From positions 27,076-91,075 of the forward strand of contig CAVPLM010000019.1 of assembly GCA_963706025.1 (NCBI GenBank): a stretch of DNA of 64,000 nt, written 5' to 3'. Source of the stretch: an uncultured Actinomycetes bacterium. Its GTDB lineage: Bacteria > Actinomycetota > Thermoleophilia > RBG-16-64-13. Each line of letters begins with the position of its first letter. Position 1 is the stretch's first letter. Made by a program: the position numbers and the translations under genes. Below the pieces are notes generated by a model. The model saw only the letters and a program-made list of their open reading frames with translations. It had not been told where the DNA came from and made no database searches. Positions 32,697-64,000 of the stretch are shown piece after piece.

Positions 32697-33360
32697 GTGG
32701 AACAAACAATCACCTACTTCGAGAAGCCGGGGCCAGCCAATACCGACAGGACCCTCCGGCTGGCAGCGGAGCAGGCCAGGCTACGAGGCATCGGCAAAGT
32801 CATCCTCGCCTCTACGCGAGGCGTCACTGCCAAGCGGGCCGCGGCACTCTTTGCCGGCACCGGCATCAGGCTGATCATCGTGCCCCACCAGTACGGCTTT
32901 ACCGAGTCGCAACTTTTCCCTCCGGATTCTGGTAGCCGCGCTGGAGCAGCCGGGCCACAAAGTCCATTTCGGCACCATGCTCTTTCACACCGACAAGTTC
33001 TACGGCTCCGGAGCGCCTGAGGCCATGGCGATGGTCCAGCGTACCATCTGCCAGGGCATGAAAGTGTGCGTCGAGATCACGCTGATGGCGGCAGATAGCG
33101 GACATGTCACCCGCGGAGAAGAGGTCATCGCGGTATCCAGCACCCGTCGGAGGGCCGACACCGCGGTAGTCGCCATCGCGTCGACCTCCAGCAATCTCCA
33201 CGACCCGCACATCACCGAGATCCTCTGCAAGCCATTGCAGACGAAGTCCTGGGCCCGGGGTACTAGTCCCTACGACCCGCCGAATCCTACCCCGTCCTCA
33301 GCGAAGAACCGTACTAGTAAGGGGATGATTGATGACCGAATCGAGGAAGACCAGGGATAG
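32697..33360 (+). CDS. Stand-alone pyruvate kinase C-terminal-like (PK alpha/beta) domain protein (frameshift near 32920)
   Basis: ITYFEKPGPANTDRTL...ASTRGVTA; QGMKVCVEITLMAADSG...ADTAVV...EILCKP. Confidence 0.75.
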
Positions 33361-35963
33361 CAAGACGGTTCTGAAGGGCCTGGGTCAGTGCTCCTTCACC
33401 CGGAACGGCGACCCGGCGGCCATCGACGTCAAGGACGGCAAGATACTGCGCATCCGGCCCCTTCATTTCGAGGACAAGTACACCAAGGAAGAGATCAAGC
33501 CCTGGCGGATCGAGAAGGACGGCAAGGTCCTCGAACCCCAGCTCAAGAGCTACCTGGCCCCCTACATGCTCGCCTACAAGAAGCGCGTCTACTCCCCCAA
33601 CCGGATCCTCTATCCCCTCATCAGGGAAGACTGGGACCTCCGAACGGCCGGCGGCGCAACGAGGAGAACCGGGGCAAGAGCAAGTACAGGCGCATCTCCT
33701 GGGACGAGGCGACCGACCTCATCGCCGCCGAGATCAAGCGCGTCCGCGAGACCTACGGGCCCTACGCCGTTCTCTGCCACGGCGACGGCCACGGCGAGAC
33801 CAAGATGGTGCACGGTCCCCACTCCTGCCAGATGCTCCTCATGGAGAAGGTGGGCGGCTACACCCAGGCCGTCCGCAACGCCGACAGCTGGGAGGGCTGG
33901 TACTGGGGCGCCGAGCACGTGTGGGGCGAGGGCGTCCAGGGTCACAGCAGCCGACGCCGACAACGTGCTCAACGACATCACCCAGAACACCCAGATGCTG
34001 ATCGCCATCGGCTGCGACCTCGAGACCACGCCCTGGGGCTTCGGCGGCCAGTTCCCCAGCAACGTCTGCTACTTCTGGAACGACATCGGCATCAAGCAGA
34101 TCTCCATCGCCCCCGACCTCAACTACTACGCCGGCGTCCACGCCGACAAGTGGATCCCCATCCTGCCCAACACCGACGCCGCCCTGCATCTGGCCATCGC
34201 CTACACCTGGATCAAGGAGGGCACCTACGACAAGGAGTACGTCGACACCCACGTGGTCGGTTTCGAGCCGTTCCGAGCCTACGTGATGGGCGAGGAAGAC
34301 GGCGTGCCCAAGACCCCGGAGTGGGCGGCCGAGAAGACCGGCGTCTCCGAATGGACCATCAAGGCGCTGGCCCGCCAGTGGGCGGAGCAGGTCACCTCCA
34401 CGCTGCACTACTACGGCGGCTCCTACATCCGCGGCCCTTACTGCCACGAGCCGGCGCGCCTGGAGTGTCTGCCTCGTGGGCATGCAGGGGATGGGCAAGC
34501 CCGGCGTGCACGTCTACAACAAGATGGCCGACGGGCTGACCCAGCTCGACCTGCCCCGGCCGGAGATAGCTGCTCAAGCTGGACGTCATCCGCAGCAAGG
34601 TGTGGAGCGGCCGTCCGCTGCTCGAGCTCACGCCCGCAGATCATCCCCAAGACCCAACTCCACCAGGCCATCCTCGACGGCCGCCGGTGAGTCGTGGGGC
34701 AGCACCTCGCTCTACGCGCACATCGACGATCAGTTCAAGAAGTACACCTATCCCATCCCCAAGGAAGAGGGCGGCAGCGAGGTCCACATGATGTGGATGG
34801 ACAACCCCTGCCGCAGCACCTGCTGGAACAACAGCATGGAGTCCATCCAGGCCTTCCGCAGCCCCAAGCTGGAGATGCATCGTGGTGCAGCACCCCTGGC
34901 TGGAGAACGACACCATCTACGCCGACATCATCCTGCCCATCAACACCAAGCTCGAAGAGCGAGGACTTCGCCCAGATCTCGCAGCGCCTCGCCCCTGAAG
35001 GGCATCGCCATCGAGGAGCAGGCCATCGAGCCGCTGGGCGAATCGCTGAGCGACTACGAGGCCGCCGGCGAGGTGGCCAAGAAGCTGGGCCTCTACGAGG
35101 AGTACACCGACGGCATGACCGTGCGACGAGAAGATCAAGTGGGGCTACGAGGTCTCGGGTTGCGCCGAAGCCATCAGCTGGGACGAGCTCGAACGAGAAG
35201 GGCTACTACTACATCCCCACCGAGGACGACTGGGAGAAGTACCCGGCCGGCATGCGGCTCTTCTACGAAGATCCCGAGAAGCCAATCCCTTGAAGACCCC
35301 CACCGGCAAGCTGGAGTTCTTCTCCCAGCGCCTGGCCGACCATTTCCCCGACGACGAGGAACGTCCGCCCTATCCCAAGTGGATCGAGAAGGGCCCCAGC
35401 CACGACGAGCGCCTCTCCAGCGAGCGGGCGAAGAAGTATCCGCTCCTCCTGGTGAGCAACCACGCCCGCTGGAGGACCCATGCCGAGAACGACGACATCA
35501 CCTGGACCCGGGAGATCCGCACCTGCAAGGTCAAGGGCTACGACGGCTACATGTACGAGCCGGTGTGGATCCATCCCGACGATGCCGCGGCCCGAGGCAT
35601 CAAGGACGGCGACATCGTCAAGCTCATCAACGAGCGGGGCACCGTTCTGGGCGGCGCCTCGTGTGGGAGCGCATCATGCCGGGCGTCACCTACCAGGATC
35701 ACGGGGCCCGGGCCGACATGATCTCGCACCGAGGCCGGCAACTCCATCGACCGCGGCGGGGCGAACAACCTCATCTCCCCGGCCAACGGCACCTCCCAGA
35801 ACTGCTGGGGCATGGCCACGAGCGGCTTCCTGGTCGACGTGCAGAAGGTGACCATGGCCGAGATGGAGGAGTGGCGGGAGAAGTATCCCTGAGGCCTTCA
35901 AGCGGGACTACGCGCCGGCCGCGGGTCTGCGCTTACACGAGCTGGATCAGAGGAGAGGAGTAG
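33332..35963 (+). CDS. Molybdopterin oxidoreductase, transhydroxylase-like large subunit #1 (many frameshifts)
   Basis: DVKDGKILRIRP, RVYSPNRILYPL, ISWDEA, RNADSWEGWYWG, DGVPKTPEWA, KTPTGKLEF, DRGGANN; no Tat signal and no N-terminal Fe-S motif. Confidence 0.85.
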
Positions 35964-35965
35964 TC

Positions 35966-36824
35966 GTGGGCAAGAAGGTCTTCATCGTCGACATAGCCCG
36001 CTGCAACGGTTGCTATTGCTGCCAGATCGCCTGCAAGGACGAGCACGTGGGCAACGACTGGTCGCCGTACGCCAAGCCGCAGCCCGACACCGGCCAGTTC
36101 TGGCTGCAAGCTGAACGAGTACGTGCGCGGCACCGTGCCCAAGGTGAAGCTCCACTACGTGGCGGTGCCCTGCCAGCACTGCGACCGAGGCCCCCTGCCT
36201 CGAGGCCTGCCCGGTCGAGGGCGCCATCTACAAGCGCGAAGACGGCCTGGTCATCATCGACCCCCAGAAGTGCACCGGCTGCCGAGAGTGCCTGCTCTCC
36301 TGCCCGTACGACGCCCTCTTCTTCAACGACGACCTCAACATCGCGCAGAAGTGCACCGGTTGCGCCCACCTGCTCGACGAGGGCTGGACCGTGCCCCGCT
36401 GCGTGGACATCTGCCCCACCGGGCGCGATCAAGTTCGGCGACGAGTCCGAGTTCGCCGCCGAGATCGCCAAGGCCACCCTGCTCGGGCCCGGCGGACGAG
36501 ACCAAGCCGCGCGTCTACTACCTGAACATGCCCAAGCGATTCATCGGCGGCCTGGTCTACGACCCGGTCGAGAAGGAGATCGTCGAGGGGCGCACGCTGC
36601 ACTCTGGTCGACGCCGACCGGCGAGAAGCGGTCGTGACCGAGACCGATGGCTTCGGCGACTTCTGGTTCAAGGATCTGGAGGAAGGAACGTTCTCGCTCA
36701 CCATCGAGGCGGAGGGTTTCGCTCCCGTCGGACATACGCATCGCTGGACACCAGCGACGACGTCAACCTGGGCGAGATCGCATTGGCAAAGCAAGGGCCC
36801 GTACCCCTTGCCGGTTTTCGCTGA
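35966..36824 (+). CDS. Fe-S small subunit (BthL/DmsB-like) with C-terminal beta-sandwich domain #1 (frameshifts)
   Basis: CNGCYCCQIACKDEHVGNDW, CQHCD, CTGCRECLLSCPY, KCTGCAH, ETDGFGDFWF, VNLGEIAL. Confidence 0.85.
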
Positions 36825-36949
36825 CCCGGGCGGGAAGCATCGGCAGACTGCGTGTCTTAGAGCCAAGCAGGCGCCCGGTGACGGCTGCGCATGCCTAAGC
36901 GGCCTGACCTCCCCCAAGTGCTTCCAGGAGTAGTCGCCGGCCCGAGGGA

Positions 36950-38933
36950 TCAGTCGCTCAATCGACTAGTTTTGCCGCCAGGTGTCCCTCGTGGATGGCG
37001 TCGTAGATCTTGCGGGGGCTCACGCAATCGCCAGCTTCGAGGACGCGCAAGGACTGGGTCGCTCCGTAGGCCCTCGATCAGCTCGCGGTTGGGTCTGAAG
37101 CCCGCGGCCAGGACCACGGAGTCGGCGGCGATGGCGGTCTCCTTGCCGGATCGGTCGGCCACGGTGATGCCGGTGTCGGTCACAGCGACCAGCCGCTGCC
37201 CCGTGTTGATGGTGACCTTCAGCGGCTGGAAGCGCTCCTCGTACACCTGGCGCTCGTCGAAGGTGATGTTGCACATGAACTCGTCGAGCATCTCGACGAA
37301 GATGACCTCTTTGCCCTGTTCGGCCAGGACGAGCCCCACCTCGGTGCCCACGATGCCGCCGCCGATGACCGCCACCGTGTCGCCGACCGTGGCTTCGCCG
37401 TGTAGCACCGCTGCGGCCGAGACCACTTTTGGATCGCCGATGCCGGGGATGTCCTCCAGCCCGAGAGCGGTCGCCCCGGTGGCCACGATGACCGCGTCGT
37501 AGGGGCTGCCACCGCCCGAGGCGTCACGCCCGGACCGCCGGTCAGGTCGGCGAGCGTGGCTTCCTTCGGCACCACGGTGATCCCCAGCTTCTCCACCTGC
37601 GTCCTCAGGTAGGCGACAAGGGGCTTCAGGTCGGGAGCTTTGAACTCGGGGATGGAGGCCTCGAGAAGCGCGCCGCCCAGCTCCCGCTTCTCGTAGAGAG
37701 TCACGGCATGGCCCTTCAGCGCGCAGACCCGGGCCGCTTCCATGCCGGCGGGTCCGCCCCCGACCACGGCCACCCTCATCGGGCGCACGGCCGGGGTGAT
37801 CTTGAACTCCTCTTCCCGGCACAGGGCGACGTTGACGCTGCAGGAGACCGTGTTCGCCATGTGGTCGCCGCGGGCGAGGCAGCCGTCGTTGCAGCGGATG
37901 CAGGGCCGGATGTCCTCCGGCCTGCCTTCTTTCGCCTTGAGCGGCCACTGCGGGTCGGCCCAGAGCGGCCGGCCCAGACCGATGAAGTCGCCCTTGCCTT
38001 CGGCCAGGATGCTCTCGGCCAGATCGGGCAGGTTGATGGAGCCCGAGGCGATCACGGGAGCTTGACCACCTTCTTCACCGCTTCCGCCGCCCACACGTTG
38101 TGGGCCAGGGACATCCCCATGGGGCTCACTTCGTGGATGGTGGTGTGGTGGATGCCGCCGGACATGTGGATGGCCGCTACTCCCCGGGCTTCCAGCCGCT
38201 TGGAGAGCTCGATGGTCTCTTCGATCGTGTGCCCTCCGGGCTCGTAGTCGGTGCCGCTCAGCCGCACGCACACGGGATAGTCGGGGCCGACCTGGGCTTT
38301 GATCTCCTTGACGATCTCGAGCAGCAGGCGCATGCGGTTCTCGAGCGGGCCGCCGTACCAGTCGGTGCGCTTGTTGGTGTAGGGTGAGAGGAAGTTCGAG
38401 ATGAGGTAGCCGTGGCAGGCGTGGATCTCCACCATGTCGAAGCCGGCCGTCTGCGCCCGCTTGGCCGCCTGGCCGAAGGCCTTCACGACCTCCTTGATCT
38501 CGTCGATGGTCATGGGCACCGGGATGGGGCAGCCGGCCGCGGTGATCTCCGGCCAGGGGACGTCGGAGGCGGCCTTGGGCTGCTCCAGGATGAACCGCTG
38601 CCTGCCCGCGTGCGAGATCTGGATGGCCGGCACCGCCCCGTTCGCCTTGATCGTATCCGCGAGCAGGGACAGCCCGGGGATGTGGTCCATCCGGGCGATG
38701 CCGAGCTGGCAGGGAGAGGCCTGGCTGGCGTCGTTGTCCACCCAGGCGTACTCGACGATGACCATGGCCGCGCCGCCCTGCGCCACTTCCTTGTAGTAGC
38801 GGAGCAGGCGGTCGGTGATGGAGCCGTCGGGATTGGCGAGCCCGGTGTGCTGCGGGGCCTTGACGATCCGGTTCTTGAGCGTGACGTTGCCGATCCGGCC
38901 CGGCTCGAACAGACGGGGGAAACTGGTTTGCAT
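36950..38933 (-). CDS. Fe-S/FAD-containing NADH:flavin oxidoreductase (OYE; enoate reductase/BaiCD/Fcr class; frameshifts)
   Basis: LKNRIVKAP, EIHACHGYLISNFLSP, RTDWYGG, CIRCNDGC...CSVN, VVGGGPAGMEAA. Confidence 0.88.
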
Positions 38934-39205: not shown

Positions 39206-39808
39206 CTAGAGATGGGCTATGACGTCGTCGGCGGTCGTGACGAGCGCAATCGCCGGGATCATCGACTTGATGACCACCTCGTGCAGTTCCCTATTGCCGT
39301 CGGTGGTGGTATCCGAAGGGACGATGAGGTTGTACAGACGGTCGGCCAGAGCGAAAGCGGCCGTAGCCACGGACATGCCCGTGGCTACCCCCGTCAGCAC
39401 CACGGTCTCTACCCCCTGCTCGACTAGATACTGTTCGAGATCGGTACCCCGGAAGACGTTGAACACCCAGTTGTAGAACACCGGCTCCCCAGCCACCGGC
39501 GCAAGCTCATCGATGACCTCCACGTCCCGCGTGCCCACATAGTTGGTCTTCGACTCCTTCGTTCCCATCCAAAACGGACCGTACACGGGCAACTTGGCGT
39601 CCACCGGAGTATGGGCGCAGACGAAAATCACCGGCAAGCCCTTTGCGCGGAATGCCTTCTGCAAGCCTTGCATCTTGGGGACGACCCCGTCCTCCCGGAT
39701 GGCCCGGCAGTGCCCGAGCACCTCCAGAGGACTGGGCGCCTTGCAGATGGCGTTCTGCATGTGGACCAGCAGCAGCGCTGGCTTCCCGACCATCTCCCAT
39801 TCGCTCAT
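39206..39808 (-). CDS. Isochorismatase/cysteine hydrolase fold protein with non-canonical catalytic residues
   Basis: ALLLVHMQN, VIDELAP, FRGTDLEQYL, VLTGVATGMSV, IVPSDTT. Confidence 0.75.
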   Translation of the reverse strand: MSEWEMVGKPALLLVHMQNAICKAPSPLEVLGHCRAIREDGVVPKMQGLQKAFRAKGLPVIFVCAHTPVDAKLPVYGPFWMGTKESKTNYVGTRDVEVIDELAPVAGEPVFYNWVFNVFRGTDLEQYLVEQGVETVVLTGVATGMSVATAAFALADRLYNLIVPSDTTTDGNRELHEVVIKSMIPAIALVTTADDVIAHL

Positions 39809-39863
39809 CGCCTTCTCCCTTCGCCCAACAAGGTGCGGTGTGCTCCAACCGTTCAGGAGTCTT

Positions 39864-40163
39864 TCATTCCGAAGAGTCTTCCATTGGCCAGTTGTAGACA
39901 AATATTTGCTCGCTATCAACAACGGTGCGCTTCCAATCAATACCATCCCGTAGCAACTCGCCGCCGACGAGCAATGCGAATTCAGGTTTGATTTCGTTGC
40001 CGTCAGCGATCAAATCAAAAAGCGTGCAATCACTTCCCTTGAGGCCGGTTGCTCTGAGAACATTCTCGATGGTCGCACTCGATCGGTCCACTCTTATCTC
40101 GCGTGCTCGCCAGCCGGCGGCATTGGCGGCATAGTCCGACATCATGTTCACTATCGCTCTCAA
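39864..40163 (-). CDS. MoaD/ThiS-like beta-grasp protein lacking the C-terminal GG
   Basis: 99 aa; pattern AAG.R.REI.V....TIENVL...LLVGG......T.V.D.EQIFV resembles MoaD/SAMP proteins; ends PMEDSSE. Confidence 0.5.
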   Translation of the reverse strand: MRAIVNMMSDYAANAAGWRAREIRVDRSSATIENVLRATGLKGSDCTLFDLIADGNEIKPEFALLVGGELLRDGIDWKRTVVDSEQIFVYNWPMEDSSE

Positions 40164-40218
40164 AAGTTGCCCCCTTGCTCCGGAGACACTGACTGCAGAC
40201 AGCAGGGAACATTAGACG

Positions 40219-41046
40219 CTACGTGGGCTCCCGGTCCATGGCAATATCGCCAAGGTTGATGTCCTTTTTCGACTGTGGCCGGCCCCAGTTCTTTCTTAAC
40301 GTAACCCGCCTTTTCCATAGAAACGAGATACGTTCCCTTGGGCAGCCCATCCACCAGGAAATCGCCGAACTCATCGGTTCGGACGGTTGCCCGGGTATCC
40401 TCGAGAACGAGTTCGAGGGTGACCAGCGCATCCTCAATGATTTCGTCGGCCTCGGGGTCATAGACAGTGCCCGCGATGAATGTTTTCGGTAGGCCGATGT
40501 AGTAGACGCGTGGCTTGGCACCCAGTTCGGGATGCAGCATCGGCCCTGGCGATTAACCCTGCGAACTCCTCTTCCTCCCCGAAGGTGAAGGCTCCGGTGG
40601 GGCAAGCTTCGGAACAACGGGTATCAGTCCACCCCTTGTCCAGCAAATGGGCGCAGAAGGTACATTTCTGGGCGATCTTCAGGTCTTTCATTAAAGTAGA
40701 TCACGCCCTGGTAGGGGCAGGCTTCCACACAGTCATGACTGCCCTCACAGATCTGTGGATCGATCACGACCAGTCCGTCATCCCTTTTGTAGATGGCCTT
40801 TTTGGGACAGGCCTTGATGCACGGAGCATCGTCGCAATGCTGACAGATCGTATGCTCGTACGCCACCTTGACCTTGGGAACCTGGCCGCGCACCTGGTCA
40901 ACCACCTTGGTCCAGAACTGGCCGGTGAGCGGCTGGGGTTTCGCGACGGGAGACCAGTCGTTCCCGCAGTGCTCGTCCTTACAGGCGATCTGGCAGTTGT
41001 GACAGCCGTTGCACTTGGTAATGTCGATTATCATTACCTTGCCCAT
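40219..41046 (-). CDS. Fe-S small subunit (BthL-like) #2 (frameshifts)
   Basis: CNGCHNCQIACKDEHCGNDW, CQHCDDAPC, KCTFCAH, RTDEFGDFLV, INLGDI. Confidence 0.85.
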
Positions 41047-41047
41047 G

Positions 41048-52070: not shown

Positions 52071-52130
52071 AAGCGCATGGTAAGCGAGGGAACGGCGTTC
52101 AGCCCTCAAGCTCTGCTCGCTCACCTTCGG
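52071..52130 (+). repeat. ~60-bp dispersed repeat, copy 2
   Basis: aagcgcatggtaagcgagggaacggcgttcagccctcaagctctgctcgctcaccttcgg. Confidence 0.8.
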
Positions 52131-52235: not shown

Positions 52236-52583
52236 TGGCTGCGCCCCGGTGTAGGTGAAAGCCTCACTCCGGGCTATCGCCAGTGAGGCGAAATGCTCGT
52301 CTAGTTCCAGGCCGTAGCAGACTCGGCCCGTCCGCTTCGCTGCGATCAGGGTGGAGCCAGAACCGCTGAAGAGGTCCAGCACGACGTCGCCTGAGCTCGA
52401 GGGATTCTCAACAGCTCGCTCCATCAGTTCAAGCAGCTTCATGGTGGGGTGAAGGGGAGAGACGTCCGGACGGGGTGTCTGACAGACGTCTGACTGATCC
52501 CTTCCTCCTCGGAAATGCCGGGTGGCGCCTTCGGGCCAGCCGTACCACACGGGCTCGTACGCGTGCTGGTAGTCGGCCTTCCA
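52236..52583 (-). pseudogene. C-terminal fragment of a phage-type N4/N6 DNA methyltransferase
   Basis: ADYQHAYEPVWYGW...HPTMK...VLDLFSGSGSTLIAA...CYGLELD; the catalytic DPPY-containing N-half is absent. Confidence 0.8.
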
Positions 52584-52634
52584 GGTGGGTGGCTAGTCAA
52601 TGGTCGTAGGAGCACTCGGTCAAGCCCATCCTCC

Positions 52635-53795
52635 TCAGTCCCAGCCGGAGCTTTCGATGCCCCAGGCGCTGATGATGCTCGCACGCACGCCCCTGTGCAG
52701 CCGTCTGAGAGCGACCTCGGCGTAGCAGTCGGCATGGGCGTAGTGGTCGTCCCGACAGCGTCGCACCCAGCGGGCCTTCTTCTGCCCGCTCACCGGGTCT
52801 TCCTCCACTTTTCTTACGATGTTGGTCATCTGCCGTATGAACTCGCGGACCCCATCGTCCAGGCGCGGTATACGGCGATCGCCCTTTTGGTGGACATCCC
52901 GCATGGCGTCAAAGGCATCGGTGCGGTTGATGGTCGCGGTCGGGGTGTTTTCTTTGTCGTATCCCCAGTCCACCAGCCCCTTCTGAGTATCGCCGTAGTA
53001 GGCCAGATAGACTCGGCCGCGGAAACGGCCGGCGAAGGCTCGGGCGGCGTGGGTGTGGGGGAGGGCGTCGATCACGCACACCCGCACGTCGTAGTCCTTC
53101 ATCAGCTGGTCCAAGTGAGTGAAGGTGGCGTCGGTCATCTCCTGGTGTTTGACCCGCAGGGTGAAGACGATGTCGCCATCCGGACGACGTTCCTTGATGA
53201 CGATGTAGAGGCCGTTGCCTTGGTCCACGCCCATGACGCAGCCTTTCCCGCTGGCGCTTTGAGGATAGTCGCCGACCAGCGCGAGGAGATCCGCTTCGCA
53301 TAAACCCCCATCGGCCGAGAGATAGGGGAGACCGAGCTCCGAGTTGAAGAACTCCTGCGGGTAGGCGGTCTCCTGCCACTTGCGCAGAAGTGCGGCCGGT
53401 TTCGTCTGGCACCCCGCCTCGCGCTCAGCCGCCGAAACGACCACGGAGGTGAACTTGCTCAGGTGGTATCCGTGTCTCGAGCGCTCCGGATACTTGGGCA
53501 CCCAGAGACCGTGGGCCGGGTCCAGGGGGCCCCCGCAGGAGGTACACACGAGCGTCTCGGCACCGGGCGGGCCCTTCACAAAGACGATCTCACGCCGGGG
53601 ATCGTCCGAGCGGCCGTGGGTCTGGGTGAACTCATCTTCGAGGCAGCGGTAGGTGGCGCAACGGTCGCACCTGAGCAGCCAGTGGCGCTGGTCGGTGGCC
53701 GCAAAGGCGGCATCGATGCCATAAAGCGGAAAGCTGGGAGTGGAGAGATACAGTTCGTAGCCGAAGCTGGAGTGTCCCAGCCGGGCGCGAGCCCT
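52635..53795 (-). pseudogene. 5'-truncated phage terminase large subunit (GpA-like)
   Basis: The frame stays open upstream of the called ORF: ARLGHS...LSTPSFP..GID...TDQRHWLLRCDRC, then FFNSELGLPY, MGVDQG, VIDALP, DDHYAHA. The Walker A/B region is missing. Confidence 0.75.
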
Positions 53796-53831
53796 TCTGC
53801 AGGACCGCCTGTACCTATAGATCGCCGTGTT

Positions 53832-56459
53832 TCAATCCTCAGCTTTCAGATCCCTGCCCTCGGTGATGTCCAAAGTCGCTTCTGCCTCCCACTTCTCGAC
53901 CTCGATGAGACAGGAGTTGTTTGCCATACCCATCGATGTGGGAGTTATGAACCGGCAAGGGGTCAGGATGTTCACGCACCCTCCACGGTCGGGTGACTCT
54001 CCTGGCCTGCCGATCGGCTCGTATTCTGCACACGACTCATAGGAGTGTACCGTGCCAGAACGCAGCCGTTCGGTGACCTGCGCGGCCAAGATAACCGAAC
54101 CCCGATCATTGAAGGCCCGCACCAGGTCGCCGTCACTGATGCCGCGGTCCTCGGCATCACTGCGGCTTATCCGCATGATCCAGTAGTAGTGACCATCCGC
54201 CGCCAAGGAGCGATTGTTCTGGACCTCGCGCATCCAAGCGTCTTTACCATCAGCCATGGTGTGATAGGAAAACCGCGGGTGCGGCGAAACCATCTGCAGT
54301 GGATATCGGCTGTACAATTCCTCGGTGTGGTGACCCTCCCAGGACTCGATGTACTGCGGTCCCATGGCCGGTCTTTCCTGGTCCACGTCGCCAAATCGAG
54401 TTAGGCTTGAGGATACAAACTCTATCTTTCCTGACATGGTTTGCAGGCCCTTGAGCCCGACTGTGTCCCCTGGCGCTGGGCCCCAGTCGGGCGTGTCCCG
54501 TACCCTTCCCTCTGCGAACCAGCGCAACGCAGGGGTTGGCTTGCGATTTTCGGGCGGAGGGACCACGTAGTAGCCCTTCTTCTGGAATTCTTCCCAGCTT
54601 ATTACCTTGGGCAGGTCAGAGGCACGGAAGACCGCTCTCACCCAATCTAATTCGCTCTTCCCTCCATCACTGAATGCTTCATAAAGACCCAAGTGCTTGG
54701 AAAGCTCGCAGAAGATGTCGTAGTCCGATTTGGACTCGCCCAGCGGCTCAATGCACTTCTGCTGTAGGGTGATGACACGATGGTTGCAGTTCGTGTAGCT
54801 ATCCGCGACATAACCCGAACAGTTGGCAGACTCGCTTATGTCCCAGCGCTCGAAGTTGGTGCAAGCAGGCAGGATGATATCCGCGAACTCGGCTTCGCCT
54901 TCCATCCAGATAGATTGGTTGACTACGAACTGAAGCCTGTCGTTGCGATAAGCGTTGACGTAGCGATTGGTGTCCGTCATGGTCCCGAAAAAGGAGCCAC
55001 CGTAGCGGTAGTACATTGCGATACTTGCATATCCTGGGGCAGGGTACTCATACTCCTGTAGCTGGGACTCAATGGAAGAACCGCAGAAACCCTTGCCCCG
55101 CCAACGAAGACGCTCGTGCATGATGGCCTCGGGGATATTGAGGCGAGGAACCGCCTGCCCCTCAGTGGAATCATGGGTGTTTCTGGTAACGCCGCGACCT
55201 TCGCTGAACATGCGATAGACCCACCGGTATCCGGCAGCTGACTTGTCCACGTCCCCAGATATACCGCCTTCGGCGTAGCCCGGGAACATGAAGGAGGTGT
55301 CAAGAGGCACACCCATGGTCGTCGACCAGATATTGCTGCCCGGTTTGCCCATTCCTTGCATCGCCGCCAGCGCGATCATGCTGCGGGCATATTCGTTGCC
55401 GTGGGCTGAGCGACAAGCGCCTCCCTGGCCACCTGCCCCCCCCGCAGCCAGCATCGTCTTCTTCGAAGCCCAGCGGCGCGCCACAGCTCGGATATCGCGA
55501 GCGGGGATACTCGTCTCAGTCTCTGCCCACTCCGGGGTCTTCGGCTGACCGTCGCTTCCGCCAAGAACGTACTCTTTCCACTCGTTAAACCCTACGGTTC
55601 GACCAGCGATGTATTCCTTATCGTAGGTATCCTCCGTAATCCAGGTGAAAGCGATGGCAAGGGCCAGGGCAGCGTCCGTGCCCATCCGAGGCGCGAGCCA
55701 CTTTCCTCCCAGAAGCCCCGCCGTGTGGTTGAAATACGGGTCGATGAAGACCATCTCCACGCCCAACTCCTTCAGCCAGAAGCGGCGAGGCGTGCTGTCG
55801 AAGGCGCCATAGATCCCGTGAGTAGTCTCCGGGTCGGAGGACCAGAACACCACCAATTCTGTGTTCTTGAGAGCGTCTTCCAGCAAGTCATACTGCTCTG
55901 GGATACCGAGACGGTGAGTGAAACCCCACATGTGCGATGCACCCCAGTGCCACCCCTCCCAACTGTCTGGGTTGTGAGCGGAGTGACACATCCCTACCAG
56001 GTTCAAGAATCGAAGATAGGCGCTGTGTCGGTAACCGACATTGCCCCACAGGTGGTGTGAAGAACAAGTAGTCAAGATACCTCCGGGGCCCACCTCACGC
56101 TTCACCCGCGCTATCTCCTCAGCCACTGTGGTGAGCGCTTCGTTCCAGCTTATTGGCTCGTAGCCGGACTCGCCGCGCTTCTCACAGTTGCGCTTCCCGT
56201 GGGGGTCGAAGTCCACCCTCTTGAGGGGGGTTAGAATCCGCTTCGGTGAGTAGATCAACGACTTCATGGCCACCGAGTAGGGGGCCAGAGTCGTCCTTCT
56301 CGGTGGAGTGAACGACCGCCCCCTAGCCTGAATAGTCCAAGATGCAGCATCGTTGTCATCCAGATCCATGGGGGTAATGCGGATGATCTTGCCATCATGG
56401 ACATCGACGAACACGGGACCGCCATTCGTACCATTGGTCAGTCGGGTGACTCGGGTCAT
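53832..56459 (-). CDS. Pyrogallol:phloroglucinol transhydroxylase large subunit homolog #3
   Basis: 875 aa; RLTNGTNGGPVFV, SSHHLWGNVGYRHS, NPDSWEGWHWG, FPGYAEGGISGD, ANCSGY, HSYESCA all match AthL as I recall it. Confidence 0.9.
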   Translation of the reverse strand: MTRVTRLTNGTNGGPVFVDVHDGKIIRITPMDLDDNDAASWTIQARGRSFTPPRRTTLAPYSVAMKSLIYSPKRILTPLKRVDFDPHGKRNCEKRGESGYEPISWNEALTTVAEEIARVKREVGPGGILTTCSSHHLWGNVGYRHSAYLRFLNLVGMCHSAHNPDSWEGWHWGASHMWGFTHRLGIPEQYDLLEDALKNTELVVFWSSDPETTHGIYGAFDSTPRRFWLKELGVEMVFIDPYFNHTAGLLGGKWLAPRMGTDAALALAIAFTWITEDTYDKEYIAGRTVGFNEWKEYVLGGSDGQPKTPEWAETETSIPARDIRAVARRWASKKTMLAAGGAGGQGGACRSAHGNEYARSMIALAAMQGMGKPGSNIWSTTMGVPLDTSFMFPGYAEGGISGDVDKSAAGYRWVYRMFSEGRGVTRNTHDSTEGQAVPRLNIPEAIMHERLRWRGKGFCGSSIESQLQEYEYPAPGYASIAMYYRYGGSFFGTMTDTNRYVNAYRNDRLQFVVNQSIWMEGEAEFADIILPACTNFERWDISESANCSGYVADSYTNCNHRVITLQQKCIEPLGESKSDYDIFCELSKHLGLYEAFSDGGKSELDWVRAVFRASDLPKVISWEEFQKKGYYVVPPPENRKPTPALRWFAEGRVRDTPDWGPAPGDTVGLKGLQTMSGKIEFVSSSLTRFGDVDQERPAMGPQYIESWEGHHTEELYSRYPLQMVSPHPRFSYHTMADGKDAWMREVQNNRSLAADGHYYWIMRISRSDAEDRGISDGDLVRAFNDRGSVILAAQVTERLRSGTVHSYESCAEYEPIGRPGESPDRGGCVNILTPCRFITPTSMGMANNSCLIEVEKWEAEATLDITEGRDLKAED

Positions 56460-56666: not shown

Positions 56667-57206
56667 CTAGTACTTCCCTAGTGATTTAACATATTCCACG
56701 AACTGATCGAACGTACTATATTTCTTGTCGACCCCACCTATGAAATCAGCGTACTCATCTACGTCAGTGAAAGTTCGACCGGTAAGACAATCAGTCATAT
56801 CGGTGCTGATGCCGCTGTCGCGTGACCAAGGGGGTGAGAATGAGTGGAGCAATATCATCTCGGTTTCGCCTACATTTGAATACGAGTGGGGTGCATACGC
56901 AGGAATGTAAAGCAAAGTCCGTCCAGTGATAGGCTTTACTTCAGCCTCTGACAACGGCCATCCAAGATAGATATTGCACTTGCCTTGGCCACCAATGAAA
57001 TCAAAGTAATATACACTCTCACTTCTGGTGTGATAATGAGGTGTGCTGTAAGCACCCGGCTGATACCAGACTATTTCCCACGTAGTGTTGTACATCTCGG
57101 GCGGCCGGGGAGCGAAGAGTCGCTTGCCCCACAGCTCCCCTTTTTCGTGAAGTTCAGCGAGAGAAAAGACGGTCGGCTTCTCCCCGGGCGTAAACTCAGA
57201 TCTCAT
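56667..57206 (-). CDS. Cupin domain protein
   Basis: PHYHTRSESVYY and PAYAPHSYSN metal-binding cupin motifs. Confidence 0.8.
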   Translation of the reverse strand: MRSEFTPGEKPTVFSLAELHEKGELWGKRLFAPRPPEMYNTTWEIVWYQPGAYSTPHYHTRSESVYYFDFIGGQGKCNIYLGWPLSEAEVKPITGRTLLYIPAYAPHSYSNVGETEMILLHSFSPPWSRDSGISTDMTDCLTGRTFTDVDEYADFIGGVDKKYSTFDQFVEYVKSLGKY

Positions 57207-57282: not shown

Positions 57283-59883
57283 TCATTCTGGCTGGACCCC
57301 CCATTTCTCGACCTCGATGAGGCAGGAGTTGCTGGCCATGGCGAACGATGTGGGCGTCAGAAAGCGTTTGGAGGTCAGAAGATTGACGCAGCCAGCCCTG
57401 TCCGCTGACTCACCGGGCTCCCCCAGGGGCAGATAGTCGGCACAGGACTCGTAGGAGTGCACCGTGCCTGCCGGTACCCGCTCGGTAACTTGCGCCACGA
57501 GGATGACAGAGCCCCGGTCGTTATAGGCACAGACAAGGTCGCCGTCCTTGATCCCACGAGCCTCGGCGTCCTTGGTGTTGACTCGCATGACCCAGTAGCG
57601 GTGACCGTCCACCAGCACCCGGTGGTCTTTGACCTCGTTCAGCCAGCTCTCCTTGGAATCGCCCATGGTATGGAAGGAAAAGCGCGGGTGGGGCGAGACC
57701 ATCTGCAGTGGGTACTTGTCGTAGAGCTCTCTGGTGTGGTGGCCTTCCCAGCTGGGGATGTACTGCGGCCCCATGATCGGGCGCTCGGGGTCGCTAAAGC
57801 CATTGGCTGCGAATCGCTTGAGGCTATTGGACACGAACTCGATCTTGCCCGACTGGGTCTGTAGGCCCTTCAGGCCGACCTGATCACAAGGCGCTGGACC
57901 CCAATCAGAAGTGTCACGCTTCCGATCCTCAGCAAACCAACGCATAGCTGGGGCCGACTTGTGATCCTTCGGGAAAGGCACGACGAAGTATCCCTTTCTC
58001 TCGAACTCTTCCCAGGTAATGTATTTGGGCAGATCGGTGGCATGGAATGAGTCCTTGACCCACCCATACTCATCTTTGCCCATGCTGAAGAGTTCATAGA
58101 TGCCCAGCCGTTTCGCCAATTCACAGAATATGTCGTAGTCCGACTTGCTTTCCCCGAGTGGCTCGATGCACTTGTGCTGCAAGGTGATCACCCTATGGTT
58201 GCACTGAGTGAAGGTGTCAGGGATGTAGCCTGAGCAGTTGGCGAACTCGCTGATATCCCAGCGTTCGAAGTTCGTGCAGGCTGGCAGGATGACGTCGGCG
58301 AAACGGGCCTCCCCTTCGAACCAGATGGACTGGTTGGCCACGAACGGGACCTTGCCTTCCCGGTATGCGTTGACGAACCGGTTGGTCTCGGTCATCGTGC
58401 CGATGAACGAGCCGCCGTAGCGGTAGTACATCTCAACGTGAGGGTAGCCGGGAGCGGGATACTCAAACTGCTCGAATTGCATCTCGATAGAAGCGGCGCA
58501 GGCCCCCTTACCGTGCCACTTGAGACGCTCGTGCCGCATGACTTCGGGGATCAGCAGACGAGGCATTATTTGCCCCTCTGCTGTGTCGTGGACGTTAGCA
58601 GTCCCCCCCGAAAGAGCCCCCTTGGGGAATAGCCGCGAGTATTGTTGGAAAGCGGTCCCTGTCTTCGCGACATCGCCAGATATGCCGCCCTCGGCATAAC
58701 CCGGGAAGAAGAATGACTCATCATGGGGAGCACCCTGGGTGGTGCTCCAGATATTTGTACCCGCTTTGCCGTAGCCCTGCATCGCCGCAAGTGCGATCAT
58801 TGTGCGAGCCCACTCGCCGCCTGTGGCAGAGCGGCAGGCACCTCCCCAACCTCCGAGACCGCCAGCAGCCAGCATGGTCTTTTTGGCGCCCCACTCCCGG
58901 GCTAGGGCTCGAATCTCGCGTGCTGGAATGCCACACTCACCTTCAGCCCACTGGGGGGTCTTCGCCACACCGTCGCTCTCGCCCAATATATAGCGCTTCC
59001 ACTGCTCGAAGCCGATGGTACGGCCGGCTATGTACTCCTTATCGTAGGTGCCTTCGGTAATCCAGGTGAAGGCGATCGCTAGCCCCAGCGGTACGTCTGT
59101 ACCAAGCCGAGGGGCGAGCCATTTGTCCGAGAAAAGTCCGGCGGTGTGATTGAAATAGGGGTCGATGAAGACCATCTTCACACCTAGCTCCTTGAGCCAG
59201 AACCGGCGTGGCGTGCTCTCGAAAGCGGAGTAAATGCCGCCACCAGTGGTCTCTGGGTCCGATGACCAGAAGACGATCATGTCGGTATTCTTGAGCGCAT
59301 CTTCCAAGAGATCGGTCTGTTCAGGGATGCCCAGACGGTGAGTGTTGCCCCACATATGCGCTCCCACCCAGAGCCAGCCCTCCCAGCTATCAGCATTCTG
59401 TGCAACCCATGTCATGCCAGCCAGATTTGAGAACCGCATGTAGGCCGAGAAGCGGTATCCGACATTTCCCCACAGATGGTGAGAGCCACTAGTCGTCATA
59501 ATGCTGCCCGGTCCCGCCTCACGTTTCGCCCGAACCATCTCCTCAGCAACCATATCTGCCGCTGCATCCCAGCTTATGGGCTCGTACCCGGAAACGCCGC
59601 GATTATGGATGTTGCGCTTGCCCTTCGGGTCGAAGTCCACTCGTTTTAGGGGGGTTAGGATCCGCTTGGGCGAGTAAACCATGGACTTCTGGGCCACCGC
59701 GTGGGGGGCCAAGGTGGTCCGACGAGGAGGTTTGAAGGTACGGCCCCGTGCGTCGATGGCCCAACTATCGGCGTCGTCTTCGTCGAAGATAATCGGCGTC
59801 ATGCGGACGATCTTGCCGTCTTTCACGTCCACAAAGACGGGGCCGCCAGTAGTGGAGTTAGTAAGTCTCGTCACCTTTCCCAT
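57283..59883 (-). CDS. Pyrogallol:phloroglucinol transhydroxylase large subunit homolog #4
   Basis: RLTNSTTGGPVFV, GSHHLWGNVGYRFS, NADSWEGW, GGLGGWGGACR, EFANCSGYIPD. Confidence 0.9.
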   Translation of the reverse strand: MGKVTRLTNSTTGGPVFVDVKDGKIVRMTPIIFDEDDADSWAIDARGRTFKPPRRTTLAPHAVAQKSMVYSPKRILTPLKRVDFDPKGKRNIHNRGVSGYEPISWDAAADMVAEEMVRAKREAGPGSIMTTSGSHHLWGNVGYRFSAYMRFSNLAGMTWVAQNADSWEGWLWVGAHMWGNTHRLGIPEQTDLLEDALKNTDMIVFWSSDPETTGGGIYSAFESTPRRFWLKELGVKMVFIDPYFNHTAGLFSDKWLAPRLGTDVPLGLAIAFTWITEGTYDKEYIAGRTIGFEQWKRYILGESDGVAKTPQWAEGECGIPAREIRALAREWGAKKTMLAAGGLGGWGGACRSATGGEWARTMIALAAMQGYGKAGTNIWSTTQGAPHDESFFFPGYAEGGISGDVAKTGTAFQQYSRLFPKGALSGGTANVHDTAEGQIMPRLLIPEVMRHERLKWHGKGACAASIEMQFEQFEYPAPGYPHVEMYYRYGGSFIGTMTETNRFVNAYREGKVPFVANQSIWFEGEARFADVILPACTNFERWDISEFANCSGYIPDTFTQCNHRVITLQHKCIEPLGESKSDYDIFCELAKRLGIYELFSMGKDEYGWVKDSFHATDLPKYITWEEFERKGYFVVPFPKDHKSAPAMRWFAEDRKRDTSDWGPAPCDQVGLKGLQTQSGKIEFVSNSLKRFAANGFSDPERPIMGPQYIPSWEGHHTRELYDKYPLQMVSPHPRFSFHTMGDSKESWLNEVKDHRVLVDGHRYWVMRVNTKDAEARGIKDGDLVCAYNDRGSVILVAQVTERVPAGTVHSYESCADYLPLGEPGESADRAGCVNLLTSKRFLTPTSFAMASNSCLIEVEKWGVQPE

Positions 59884-59988: not shown

Positions 59989-61035
59989 CTACGGCCCCAG
60001 AAACACCTTCAGACAGCGATCCTTGTGGTTCTCGAACAGGTCGTAGGCTTCGACCGCGTCCTCAAGCGAGAACCTATGCGTTCCGATGGGCCCCAGATCG
60101 ACTCGTCCGTGCTCGACGAGCTTCATGAGCTTGGGGATGTGCACCATGTTGCCCAGTCCCATCACCACTTTGATCCCCCTGAAGATCAGTTCGTGCACGG
60201 GAAACTCCACCGGTTCGCTGAAGAGCCCTACGCAGGACACGGTGCCGTATTTGTTGATCATGCGCGTGGCGTTCGAGAAGGCGCTCGTGTCGCCGCTGGC
60301 TTCAAGGACCACATCCACACCTTCCTGACCTGTCGCCGCCAGTATCTGCTCGGCGGGGTCACATTGCCGGATGTCTATCGGAGTCGCGCCGTAGCGCTCG
60401 GCCAGAGCCAGGCGATTCTCGAAGAGGTCGATGGCGAAGACCCGGCTGGGCCCGAATTGCCAGGCAGAGAGGACGGCGCAGAGACCCACGGGGCCGCAAC
60501 CTGAGATGGCGACCGTATCCCCCACCTTTATCTTGGCCTCGTAAGCCGCGTGGTAGCCGGTGTTGAACATGTCGCCGACCAAGACGGCCTGCTCGTCTGG
60601 GACGCCGGCCGGGATGTGCGTTAGTGCGAAATCTGCATAGGGAACGCGGACCAGCTCCGTCTGCACGCCGTCAAGACCCATGGGAGACAAGAACAGACCT
60701 CCGCCATACGTGGACAACTCCGGGCAATTCTGTAGAATGCCCGACCGGCAGGCCTGGCAGGTGCCGCAGGTGACGGCCGGGGGCGAGACGACACGGTCGC
60801 CAACGCGGAAACGCCGGACGCCGGCCCCTGCCTCCTGAACGACCCCGACGAACTCGTGTCCAAGTATGGTACCGGGTTCAATGCCGGGTATGCGTCCGTG
60901 TTTCATGTGTACATCGGTGCCGCAGATCGCGGTCAGGGTCACGCGGACCAGGACATCCGACGATTCCCGCAGTGAGGGCTCAGGAACGTCCTCTACGATG
61001 ATCTGCGCACCATCTCTCAGGACGACTGCTCGCAC
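59989..61035 (-). CDS. Zn-dependent alcohol dehydrogenase (MDR family)
   Basis: ICGTD, GHE, CGTCQAC...C structural Zn site, GCGPVG; GGAGG RBS before GTG 61035. Confidence 0.88.
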   Translation of the reverse strand: MRAVVLRDGAQIIVEDVPEPSLRESSDVLVRVTLTAICGTDVHMKHGRIPGIEPGTILGHEFVGVVQEAGAGVRRFRVGDRVVSPPAVTCGTCQACRSGILQNCPELSTYGGGLFLSPMGLDGVQTELVRVPYADFALTHIPAGVPDEQAVLVGDMFNTGYHAAYEAKIKVGDTVAISGCGPVGLCAVLSAWQFGPSRVFAIDLFENRLALAERYGATPIDIRQCDPAEQILAATGQEGVDVVLEASGDTSAFSNATRMINKYGTVSCVGLFSEPVEFPVHELIFRGIKVVMGLGNMVHIPKLMKLVEHGRVDLGPIGTHRFSLEDAVEAYDLFENHKDRCLKVFLGP

Positions 61036-61496: not shown

Positions 61497-62666
61497 TCAG
61501 AGCGCCTTCATGTAGACCTCGGTAGCGTCTTTCGCTCCGACATCGCGCGGGTTCATCAAACCGAGGGGGAAGGACTGATAGGTCATGAGCTCGTCGACCA
61601 GACCAGGGATATCCGCGGCCGTGAGCCCCACTTCGCTCAGCCGTTGCGGCATGTCCAAGTCGGAGAGCAGCGCACGCACTGCCGAAACCGACTTAAGTGC
61701 CGCATCCCGGATGGAAAGCCCATTTGTGTTCTCTCCAAGAAGTCGGGCGACTTCTGCATGTTCTCCGGAGCCGAGATCAGGTTGTACTCCATCGCGTAGG
61801 GGAGCATGAGACCCACCGCAGCTCCATGAGAGATGCCAGCCCGCTTGCCCAAGGCTATGTTCATGAGGTGGGCTAGTCCCACTCCCGCCACTGACCCGGC
61901 AAACATGGCGAACGAGGCGCCGATCGACATCTGATACCGGTCCTCCATCCGGGCGCATCCTTTGGCATATGCTGGCCCGATGCTTTTCGAGATAAGCCGA
62001 ATGGCCTCGGAAGCAAAGAGATCGGTGACGAGATTGGCCCGGCAACAGGTATAGCCTTCTATGGCGTGAGCAAGGGCGTCCATACCGGTATGGGCGGTGG
62101 CCGTGGCCGGAAGGTCTCTGGTGAGAGCCGGGTCGACGATCACCGCCTCTGGGAGATTCAGGGGGATGATGTAGACGTTGGTCCTATCATCGGTCGTGTC
62201 GGTGGTGATGACAGCGGCCGTGCTCCACTCCGATCCAGTGCCGGCGGTGGTGGGGATGAGGATCTTGGGCAGGCTCTTCTCGAACACTTTTCCCTCCAGC
62301 AGATCCTGAAGGCTTGCCCCCTCGTTGGCGGCGAGGATGCTGGCGGCCTTGGTAGTGTCCATGACGCTGCCCCCGCCTACGCCGACGAGCAGGCCGTAAT
62401 GTCCACTCTTCACCCTCTTAGCCAGCTCCTCGATGCCGCTCGCCGGTGCTTCCACCCCACACCCATCAAATACATCGGCCTCAAGCTGGGCCGAGGCCAG
62501 GCTCGCCTGCACGGTGTCGATGATTCCAGCGCCGGCCACTCCCCGGTCGGTGACGATGAGAATCCGGTTTGGCGACAGGGTTTTCACCACGTCCCCGGCC
62601 GCCTATGGCACCTACACCGAGCAGGGTCCGCGGAATTGCTATTTCGACAAGGTCAGCGTGAGACAC
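61497..62666 (-). CDS. Iron-containing alcohol dehydrogenase (frameshifts near 62600 and 61770)
   Basis: GGGSVMD, PTTAGTGSE, DALAHAIE, GLAH...SHG, MPQRLSEVG, NPR. Confidence 0.88.
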
Positions 62667-62778: not shown

Positions 62779-63443
62779 CTAGATATCCTTGGTGTCACGG
62801 GCGTAGAGCCCGGGCAGAAACTCGGCTAAATTGCCCATCTCGTGACAGTTGTGTTCGAGCAGACCTACAGCCTCTTCTATGGTGGCTTTCCGCAACCAGA
62901 ACCGGTTTCTCATCTCGCATCCGAAATAGGTGTCACGGACCATGTGAAGGAACGCGCCGAAGGACGCTCCTTTGTCATCGCCCAGATCGGCGCAGAGGGC
63001 ACAGTTGATGTTCGTGTCCGTGAACCGAGAAGTGTCCATGATCTCTGCGGGGTCGTAAAAGCTGATGACTATGGGGACGAGCTTACCCCCCAATACTCAC
63101 TGATGCGCCAAGTCGCCCCCGCTACGGTGCCGGGCTTGTTCTTGAAATCCGATTCGAACGTGGTGTGATCGGGGCTCCAGGTTTTGTTTCTGTCGATGTT
63201 CGTCATGTAGCTTGCGAACCACCGATCGACCATCTTTCCCTTGCAGTGGGAGAAACGGGTGAGGGTGTTGACAAACATGCCGCCATCAGGGGCAGGGGCG
63301 TAGCCTGTCTCTATCGGCCCATAACCCGGAGACAGGACCTCTTCGATGACCTCTGGAGGAAATGTGAACCTCTCCATAACCTGATGTCTCCTTTCGCGTA
63401 CCGACTCCTTGGTGAAGAACTCCGGCAACCGGGCGTCGCCATT
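62779..63443 (-). CDS. DAPG hydrolase PhlG / phloretin hydrolase family C-C hydrolase (frameshift in the G-run near 63088; start uncertain)
   Basis: ETGY...DGG, MVDRWF, WSPDH, ISEYWG, GCEMRNRFW, LEHNCHEMGNLAEFLPGLY. Confidence 0.75.
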
Positions 63444-63559
63444 CCCTGAGCCGCCAGGCTAGTTGTATGCCGGTTCGTACGCAAGAACCAGGCACCATTA
63501 CGTATAGCGCAACGAAGCTTGGCGCCATACGTGATGAAGACGCGAAATGGCATGTGCTT

Positions 63560-63603
63560 CCACTCGCGGTCGAGAGCCGATATCGACTCTCGACCGCGAG
63601 TGG
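63560..63603 (-). terminator. Long hairpin downstream of the second solute-binding protein gene
   Basis: ccactcgcggtcgagag...ctctcgaccgcgagtgg, 17-bp perfect stem. Confidence 0.6.
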
Positions 63604-63613
63604 ATCAATCCTG

Positions 63614-64000
63614 CTAGTACTGCATCGGCTTAAGTTTGGACGCAGCCTCTTCCGTCATTCCTGGTACATAGCTACTCGCCAGGTATGCCAGCTGGTAGCT
63701 CCATTTGGGGTCCGTGCTCTTGCGCCACTGGCCACCCCCCATCGCCGCGCTGACCCCGTTCGGCACGGGGCGAGCCTCGCTGCCCACGGCCGCTGTGAAA
63801 TCAATCGGACCCTGGCTGGTCATCATCTTTGTGCTGCCGATGGCGGCCAAGAATTCCGCTTTGTCATCGAGATTCTTCGTCCGTTCCACTGCGTTGATGA
63901 ACAGCTCCATCATGCCCACCTGCATTATCCCCTGCGTCCACTGTGTGCCGGTTTTGGCCTCGTAGTCATCGGCGAGCTCCTGACAGCTCATTCCGGTGAG
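63614..64000 (-). CDS. ABC solute-binding protein, C-terminal part (paralog of 45171-46607)
   Basis: SCQELADDY...QWTQ...GPIDFT...GGQWRK aligns with SCQQFADKF...QWNQ...GPIDFT...GNQWRK. Confidence 0.85.
   Translation of the reverse strand, partial: LTGMSCQELADDYEAKTGTQWTQGIMQVGMMELFINAVERTKNLDDKAEFLAAIGSTKMMTSQGPIDFTAAVGSEARPVPNGVSAAMGGGQWRKSTDPKWSYQLAYLASSYVPGMTEEAASKLKPMQY

Follow-up and report, generated by a model that had tools for sequence, protein, structure and literature searches.

The closest described relatives of the enzymes considered here are the molybdenum (Mo) pyrogallol-phloroglucinol transhydroxylase AthL/BthL (PgtL) of Pelobacter acidigallici (Protein Data Bank (PDB) 4v4c) and the resorcinol hydroxylase RehL/RhL of Aromatoleum (Azoarcus) anaerobius. 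In the consulted parts of the literature, RhL and PgtL constitute a defined Ser-coordinating family, with RehL performing the net hydroxylation of a dihydroxybenzene (PMC10100899), and the catechol dehydroxylases Dadh and Cldh lie nearest to acetylene hydratase, apart from pyrogallol hydroxytransferase (PMC7028382). As far as the consulted sections report, pyrogallol hydroxytransferase genes occur in 2-3 copies per genome in subsurface Chloroflexi (PMC3971608, PMC4959651), and peat Actinomycetota express pgthAB (PMC12203004); the Chloroflexi and peat sets comprise several AthL-like genes per uncultured anaerobe and were read as plant-phenolic catabolism. Here, we analyzed a 64,000-nucleotide stretch (the window) from the genome of an uncultured Thermoleophilia bacterium of the RBG-16-64-13 family (G000; 92% complete, 7.3% contamination), corresponding to positions 27076-91075 of its contig C19 and ending at the contig end. 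Its right half encodes four AthL-like Mo large subunits, designated A, B, C and D (PF21423/PF00384), which the original prediction had joined with their neighbors into one flavonoid-degrading island. Our analysis instead favors, with a probability of roughly 0.6, a hypervariable accessory region composed of separately acquired, peripheral cassettes of an AthL-family network.

The large subunits fell into two clades. A quick tree of 25 paralog rows from G000 separated 11 clade II sequences, A and B among them, from 14 clade I/Ib sequences, including C and D (Shimodaira-Hasegawa-like approximate likelihood ratio test, 100). AthL was the best PDB match for C (1233 bits), D (1190 bits) and an intact ortholog of B (P0001, 95% over the tested piece; 460 bits), and A was placed by Pfam and the tree. 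Judged by sequence, A and B were shown to form an uncharacterised sister clade of AthL, and C and D to belong to the AthL clade itself. C scored 67 bits against acetylene hydratase versus 1233 against AthL and is therefore not catechol-dehydroxylase-like. In these enzymes, neither an Fe-S motif at the N-terminus nor an export signal was seen, and their Ser-ligated Mo-bis(pyranopterin guanine dinucleotide) (Mo-bisPGD) motif is that of AthL.

At the residue level, with AthL positions counted by hand on the alignment of C to 4v4c, all four subunits kept Ser175, which we take to be the Mo ligand, together with Asp174, Trp176 and His144, whose roles in AthL, like those of the pocket residues, we likewise assume. 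C retained S143, H144, Y152, R153, D174, S175, W176, Y404, F468, C557 and Y560, with W354 changed; D retained the same set except F468, and W354 in addition, with H154 changed as well; and the paralog C17_25360 kept all seven of Y152, R153, W354, Y404, F468, C557 and Y560. Compared with AthL, C and D thus share the presumed catalytic residues, differ in the pocket and lack an adjacent small subunit. In A and B, S142 is replaced by D, the loop reads D-G/Q-H-G-E, and Y152, R153, W354, F468, C557 and Y560 are lost, with Y404 aligning in B alone, within a poorly aligned stretch. Of the four enzymes described earlier as transhydroxylase-like, A and B thus fail the comparison with the AthL pocket; C and D are close relatives of AthL.

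The predicted structure of the B ortholog (pLDDT 91) gave a TMq of 0.86 to AthL at 31% structural-alignment identity, compared with 0.79-0.80 to dimethyl sulfoxide (DMSO) and trimethylamine N-oxide (TMAO) reductases and 0.62 to acetylene hydratase. His151, Glu153, Asp182 and Ser183 did not vary across 89 aligned close homologs, and Asp149, His158 and His161 hardly varied. Searching with this ortholog returned 3936 clusters at E<=1e-30, some of them probably clade I; the few source names comprised Thermoleophilia, Desulfobacteraceae, Spirochaetes and Dehalococcoidia. Small subunits stand beside A and B only, and none adjoins C or D, as at 11 of the 25 AthL-like loci in G000. Three intact clade II small subunits contained 15-16 Cys residues, compared with 12-13 in five intact clade I/Ib ones (BthL itself presumably carries three clusters), and the longer Fe-S wire suggested for clade II would fit net electron transfer. 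RehL, likened here by family description only, shares the Ser-coordinating family and may serve as a model for clade II or Ib activity.

DNA-level comparison with four other genomes (the congener G001, and G002, G003 and G009) divided the region into two blocks. Window positions 32338-51892 aligned to G001 as a single block at 91-95%, with differing flanks; as a unit, this left block was not found in G002, G003 or G009, and the right block was present in none of the four, G001 included. The two copies of a 61-nucleotide direct repeat (84%) flank the shared part, an excisionase-like open reading frame (ORF) lies outside it, and at 52.2-53.8 kb pieces of a terminase and a methylase mark the junction. 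The region is therefore built from two blocks with a prophage remnant between them, which argues for at least two separate acquisitions. GC content at third codon positions was 0.53-0.82 in 17 of the 18 genes or gene pieces measured, the old yellow enzyme (OYE) reductase reaching 0.94. The cupin 2 gene and the PhlG-like hydrolase piece of the right block were found in 0/60 other family genomes, contrary to the linkage expected of a conserved island. Cupin 2 is rare overall (nine homolog clusters, the window's own included). A 2.1-kb independent metagenome contig (L115) carries the hydrolase end, the Fe-containing alcohol dehydrogenase (Fe-ADH) and cupin 2 in the same order, without the Zn-dependent dehydrogenase (Zn-ADH) and D, and this three-gene order counts against a purely random right block. 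In G001, a 77% homolog of the Zn-ADH adjoins a different clade I gene.

The families concerned are expanded throughout the genome. G000 contains 25 AthL-like loci (25 or 24 PF21423 matches, depending on the search), alongside 19 LivJ-like, 11 OYE and 20 BthL-like loci; three of the AthL-like loci lie on near-duplicate contigs, leaving about 23 distinct ones. These contigs, C1 and C8 (144929-182500; 98% over about 37 kb) and C29 (91-98% in pieces), each carry an almost identical AthL-like gene and probably reflect strain redundancy within the bin. Under uniform scatter, four or more AthL-like genes in 31 kb would occur with P=0.019; yet for 15/25 AthL-like loci the next one is no more than 10 kb away, and five sit in about 16 kb of C17. 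Clustering is thus above uniform chance, yet it is the rule for AthL-like genes in G000, and the proximity on which the island was founded does not set this locus apart from the general expansion. AthL-type domain matches, which do not equal exact copy numbers, ranged from 7 to 38 (median 15) in 43/61 family genomes and from 0 to 1 in the other 18, compared with the 2-3 copies of Chloroflexi. In a class-wide sample, 27/36 RBG-16-64-13-family genomes and 15/36 genomes of one other family (1-7 matches each) were positive, as were 0/128 genomes from ten further families. The nearest relatives of gene D came from Thermoleophilia and other Actinomycetota metagenome-assembled genomes (MAGs); JAEXAI01 and JAATFL01 (PMC13460747, consulted in part) were dropped as relatives, both being Coriobacteriia. 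Among 76 loci around relatives of D, a rough script count gave at least two AthL-like genes in 37 and at least three in 15; LivJ occurred in 24, OYE in 5, a Phy homolog in 1, and OYE together with Phy in 0. Our literature search found no report of this copy-number expansion or of the sister clade, although subscription journals and supplements may hold one.

A candidate lower pathway lies on another contig. C17 20976-28900 (L120 8977-16872) encodes a BKACE, a short-chain dehydrogenase/reductase (SDR), a 3-hydroxyacyl-CoA dehydrogenase, a cyclase, AthL and BthL in a single run, followed by four clade II genes. Its AthL scored 1297 bits with all pocket residues present, the best of three G000 copies compared with AthL. 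The consulted part of the report on the Clostridium scatologenes phloroglucinol pathway describes the same four families as stand ahead of the C17 AthL (PMC10470551). None of the four was matched in the window, and the 6 cyclase and 7 BKACE matches all lie outside it. By gene content, the C17 run is likely the trihydroxybenzene fermentation operon of G000.

Under the favored reading, each cassette would be a peripheral module of the approximately 23-25 cytoplasmic Mo-bisPGD enzymes encoded genome-wide. In the right block, the binding protein would import a substituted hydroxybenzene, a C-acyl or similar substituent would be stripped by the short metallohydrolase of PhlG fold, and the ADHs would process the side-chain product. 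C and D, together with a BthL-type subunit encoded elsewhere, could then shift or add a ring hydroxyl through their His/Asp/Ser-Mo center and altered pockets, yielding a meta-hydroxylated ring for fermentation by the C17 operon. In the left block, the retained Mo-Ser and His/Asp pair, the rebuilt pocket and the 15-16 Cys small subunit suggest that A and B may perform net hydroxylation or dehydroxylation instead of redox-neutral transfer. Their substrate would be a nitrogen-bearing aromatic (an aromatic amino acid, an amine or a hydroxylated N-heterocycle) and not a flavonoid, as suggested by the neighboring decarboxylase, aminotransferase, PreA-like, isochorismatase-like and RidA-like genes.

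Several points weigh against this reading. The DNA-level synteny covers four other genomes, and block sharing is seen in one of them. With the contig ending at position 64000, a regulator, small subunit or transporter belonging to the right block may lie beyond. The tree is a quick version of G000 paralogs, without AthL, RehL or the catechol dehydroxylases, and the Cys count leaves out a ninth small subunit (clade I, on C14), which is frameshifted. The proposed substrates are read from neighboring genes. Finally, the clustering value, combined with AthL-family genes in both blocks, makes a shared catabolic theme possible.

The best-surviving alternative, which we nevertheless regard as unlikely, holds that most paralogs other than the C17 copy act on non-phenolic substrates such as N-heterocycles or S- or N-oxides, and that the polyphenol label was carried over from the sole solved relative. 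In structure, the clade II model comes nearly as close to DMSO/TMAO reductases as to AthL, which would agree with this view, as would the nitrogen-metabolism families around A and B. Many copies are also transcribed without added polyphenol in peat, where Supplementary Data 6 of a partly consulted study lists at least 28 distinct transcribed pgthA-labeled genes for one RBG-16-64-13 MAG (10.1101/2024.10.22.619724). Peat, however, has native phenolics, so that expression in unamended samples is compatible with phenolic use; C keeps the eleven AthL residues listed for it above, and D all of these but F468. Moreover, the AthL expansion co-occurs with Phy homologs, PF18089 matches being present in 37/43 AthL-rich versus 2/18 AthL-poor family genomes; kin among these genomes are not independent data points. 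Together with the peat literature, this co-occurrence speaks for a polyphenol link at the level of the lineage.

At the level of the locus, we consider it improbable that an Fcr-type OYE, a phloretin hydrolase and four transhydroxylases form one island yielding phloroglucinol, as first proposed. All the families do lie within 31 kb, the PF18089 co-occurrence speaks for it, and the consulted part of the catechin-amended peat study names CAQPS01, Chersky-299 and RBG-16-64-13 among the genera with expressed genes annotated FCR, PHY and/or CHI (10.1101/2024.10.22.619724). The OYE and the PhlG homolog, however, belong to different blocks, none of the 76 AthL loci above holds both, and at 0/30 Phy loci does an OYE or an AthL gene lie within 1.5 kb; the joining of Fcr/Phy and AthL chemistry is not supported by these counts, and the AthL pocket is missing from A and B. 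In the MAG mentioned above, summed pgthA values at day 35 were 0.57, 3.15 and 0.37 in unamended and 0.18, 0.18 and 0.85 in catechin samples; induction by catechin was not seen in this weak comparison of community-normalised values from one MAG at one time point, taken from a partly consulted source.

The two supposed flavonoid enzymes themselves differ from their namesakes. Fcr of Eubacterium ramulus is an OYE with flavin mononucleotide (FMN), Fe-S and flavin adenine dinucleotide (FAD), and the window OYE shares this broad architecture as we understand it for Fcr. Among curated models, BaiCD, BilR and a mycofactocin OYE came nearest, all matched far below cut-off. Copies of it (91-95%) stand at two other loci of congeners, where isochorismatase, LivJ, IclR and a further OYE accompany them and, at one locus, cupin 1 as well; neither locus gave an AthL-like or Phy-like match in 20 kb. 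An IclR-isochorismatase-LivJ-OYE-OYE module without an AthL-like gene was seen in G003 (C14; L112) and G001 (C19; L113), along with alpha/beta hydrolase, SDR, 2-hydroxyacid dehydrogenase and thiamine pyrophosphate-dependent E1 dehydrogenase genes.

The PF18089 homolog of the window is the weakest in G000, three intact copies elsewhere scoring 230-248 bits. It shares the Pfam family and metal positions with Phy (5xe5/5xey) and PhlG (3hwp), but spans about 200 aa versus 279-302 and lacks the N-terminal part; a close, full-length (275-300 aa) Phy/PhlG is thus not what the window encodes. Sixteen homologs (P0140-P0155) measure 183-214 aa, one of them named from Chloroflexota. These short proteins keep four positions (His, Glu, His, Glu) that we take to be the metal ligands of Phy/PhlG; in the window homolog, Asn replaces the Tyr ahead of the first metal His. 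An intact ortholog scored 63 bits to Phy, compared with 108 for the canonical G000 copy; the PhlG equivalog model also stayed below cut-off on the canonical C3 copy. By these features, the window homolog is a short, divergent subfamily, and a search of 300 phylum genomes found it in none outside G000. The weak PF18089 loci L116 and L117 of relatives were rejected as orthologs, and have no AthL-like neighbor either. Two canonical PhlG/Phy-family hydrolases stand in tandem with an EthD-domain gene at C3 314800-318400 (L121 6843-10419), with TetR/MerR and LysR regulators and an aldehyde:ferredoxin oxidoreductase nearby; several family genomes likewise have PF18089 matches in close pairs.

The least probable alternative is that the juxtaposition arose in assembly or binning, or that A and B have decayed into pseudogenes: contamination, near-duplicate contigs, the position at a contig end, the 27 and 14 indels of the A and B regions relative to G001 and the failure of any listed public contig piece to bridge the junction would suit it, but nearly all indels are single-base and occur on both assemblies, the OYE is intact in G001 (658 aa), an intact B ortholog exists, and the C, D, LivJ, PreA-like, HisC-like and decarboxylase genes are intact. 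On the same grounds, the frameshifts in A, B and their neighbors are probably sequencing errors, and pseudogene decay is less likely. Among public sequencing runs, no RNA run was listed as containing the region; two DNA runs were, with a share of 0.05, and gave short pieces only, some of them identical in both blocks.

If the accessory-cassette reading is extended further, a tentative picture emerges, to which we give well under even odds: RBG-16-64-13 Thermoleophilia would be specialist anaerobic ring-tailoring bacteria with mobile AthL-family cassettes, the sister clade would act on nitrogen-bearing aromatics, and in the right block an acylated polyhydroxybenzene would be the substrate of a new, short subfamily of C-C hydrolases paired with two altered transhydroxylases. 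On this view, the enzymes of the left block would be the first of the AthL family to hydroxylate or dehydroxylate nitrogen-bearing aromatics. Few members of the enzyme family are characterised (AthL, resorcinol hydroxylase), yet annotation tools label every copy pgthA. If dozens of diverged paralogs act on different rings, current views of how polyphenols are turned over under anoxia are built on labels that are too broad, and the substrate-diverged set would offer a panel for new oxygen-free aromatic C-O chemistry in a family of actinobacteria widespread in wet soils and sediments. The locus itself is one variable patch; the remaining interest lies in the large repertoire and the sister clade.

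The features of both blocks are collected in Table 1. Pfam confirmed the predicted inventory of four Mo large subunits, two Fe-S subunits, a PF18089 homolog, an OYE and two ADHs. One of the two cupins has a weak Cupin_2 match; the second is unsupported by Pfam and was recognized through Atlas neighbors only, among whose members just 14% carry Cupin_2 (this protein is 99% conserved in G001 and 67% in G003). Similarly, one LivJ-class protein is complete and the other is known as a contig-end piece. The predicted lack of a regulator was reproduced among the ORFs scanned in 32697-64000, with the qualification that an HTH_17 ORF lies just outside and that the contig ends at 64000. Overlooked before were five genes, for PreA/dihydroorotate dehydrogenase (DHOD)-like, HisC-like, isochorismatase-like and RidA-like proteins and a pyridoxal phosphate (PLP) decarboxylase, as well as the pieces of a terminase and a methylase.

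Table 1. Genes and sequence elements of the left block, the junction and the right block, in window coordinates
Feature	Position	Strand	Basis or remark
HTH_17/excisionase-like ORF, outside left block	31809..32249	-	PF12728 E 4e-8; phrog_66
Left copy of 61-nucleotide direct repeat, 84%	32288..32348	+	blastn: no third copy in G000
Pyruvate-kinase C-terminal-domain-like protein, one frameshift	32697..33360	+	PK_C E 1e-4, below cut-off, on intact congener copy
Mo large subunit A, AthL sister clade II, D-G-H-G-E loop, many single-base frameshifts	33329..35963	+	PF21423, tree, residue table
Fe-S small subunit of A, frameshifted, C-terminal carboxypeptidase-regulatory-like domain	35966..36824	+	Four complete Cys motifs, read on congener copy
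FMN/4Fe-4S/FAD OYE reductase, BaiCD/BilR/NCR type, frameshifted	36950..38933	-	Below every curated cut-off
Isochorismatase-family protein	39206..39808	-	PF00857, 104 bits
Small ORF	39864..40163	-	No family match
Fe-S small subunit of B, frameshifted, third motif Cys-to-Ser	40160..41046	-	Pfam and motif reading
Mo large subunit B, AthL sister clade II, frameshifted	41048..43633	-	Pfam, tree; intact ortholog P0001
Cupin-like protein 1	43947..44603	-	No Pfam match; Atlas neighbors 0.94-0.95
LivJ-class binding protein, twin-arginine/lipoprotein-like N-terminus	45171..46607	+	PF13458; intact
PreA/DHOD-like flavoprotein, C-terminal ferredoxin domain, intact	46981..48300	+	PF01180 weak and Fer4; NF006183 101 bits, below cut-off
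HisC/CobD-like PLP enzyme, intact	48406..49554	+	PF00155; TIGR01141, TIGR01140 below cut-off
Group II PLP decarboxylase, intact	49686..51128	+	PF00282, 370 bits
RidA/L-PSP-like protein, final gene common to G001	51294..51797	-	PF01042
Right copy of 61-nucleotide direct repeat	52071..52130	+	
Prophage remnant: truncated DNA methyltransferase and truncated terminase large subunit	52251..53810	-	phrog_498, phrog_675
Mo large subunit C, AthL clade I, intact, W354 to Q	53832..56459	-	1233 bits to PDB 4v4c
Cupin 2	56667..57206	-	Weak Cupin_2 match
Mo large subunit D, AthL clade I, intact, F468 to A, H154 to F	57283..59883	-	1190 bits to 4v4c
Zn-ADH	59989..61035	-	PF08240/PF00107
Fe-ADH, frameshifted	61497..62666	-	PF00465
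Short PhlG/Phy-fold hydrolase, ~200 aa, one frameshift in G run	62779..63377	-	PF18089 halves, 46-48 bits
Second LivJ-class protein, C-terminal part, cut by contig end	63614..64000	-	tblastn 38% to first LivJ

Some neighboring genes carried features of their own. In the isochorismatase-like protein, the canonical Asp-Lys-Cys triad is apparently absent (by eye, its positions are occupied by His, Trp or Asn, and Ser), although the protein is 63-98% conserved in congeners. The adjacent small ORF resembles MoaD/ThiS by eye and gave no family match, and we take the group II decarboxylase to be akin to aromatic-amino-acid decarboxylases. Scanning the whole window for tRNAs returned 0 genes and hence no tRNA attachment site, and searching 51-64 kb for promoters and terminators yielded no more than consensus matches. 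A 46-nucleotide, near-perfect palindrome at 63559-63604, right behind the second LivJ gene, may represent a terminator or processing site. Upstream of the region, window positions 1-31300 hold a big surface-polysaccharide locus with two pectate-lyase/beta-helix proteins, a pyruvyl transferase, a C-methyltransferase and glycosyltransferases; in G001, too, a polysaccharide locus adjoins the shared block, on its opposite side. Finally, an intergenic element of about 150 nucleotides occurs at window 31799-31952 and 32340-32486, again on G000 contig C25 at 11962 and 14686 (73-75%) and once in G001, beside the shared block, and a short related motif is found at window 61329-61349.

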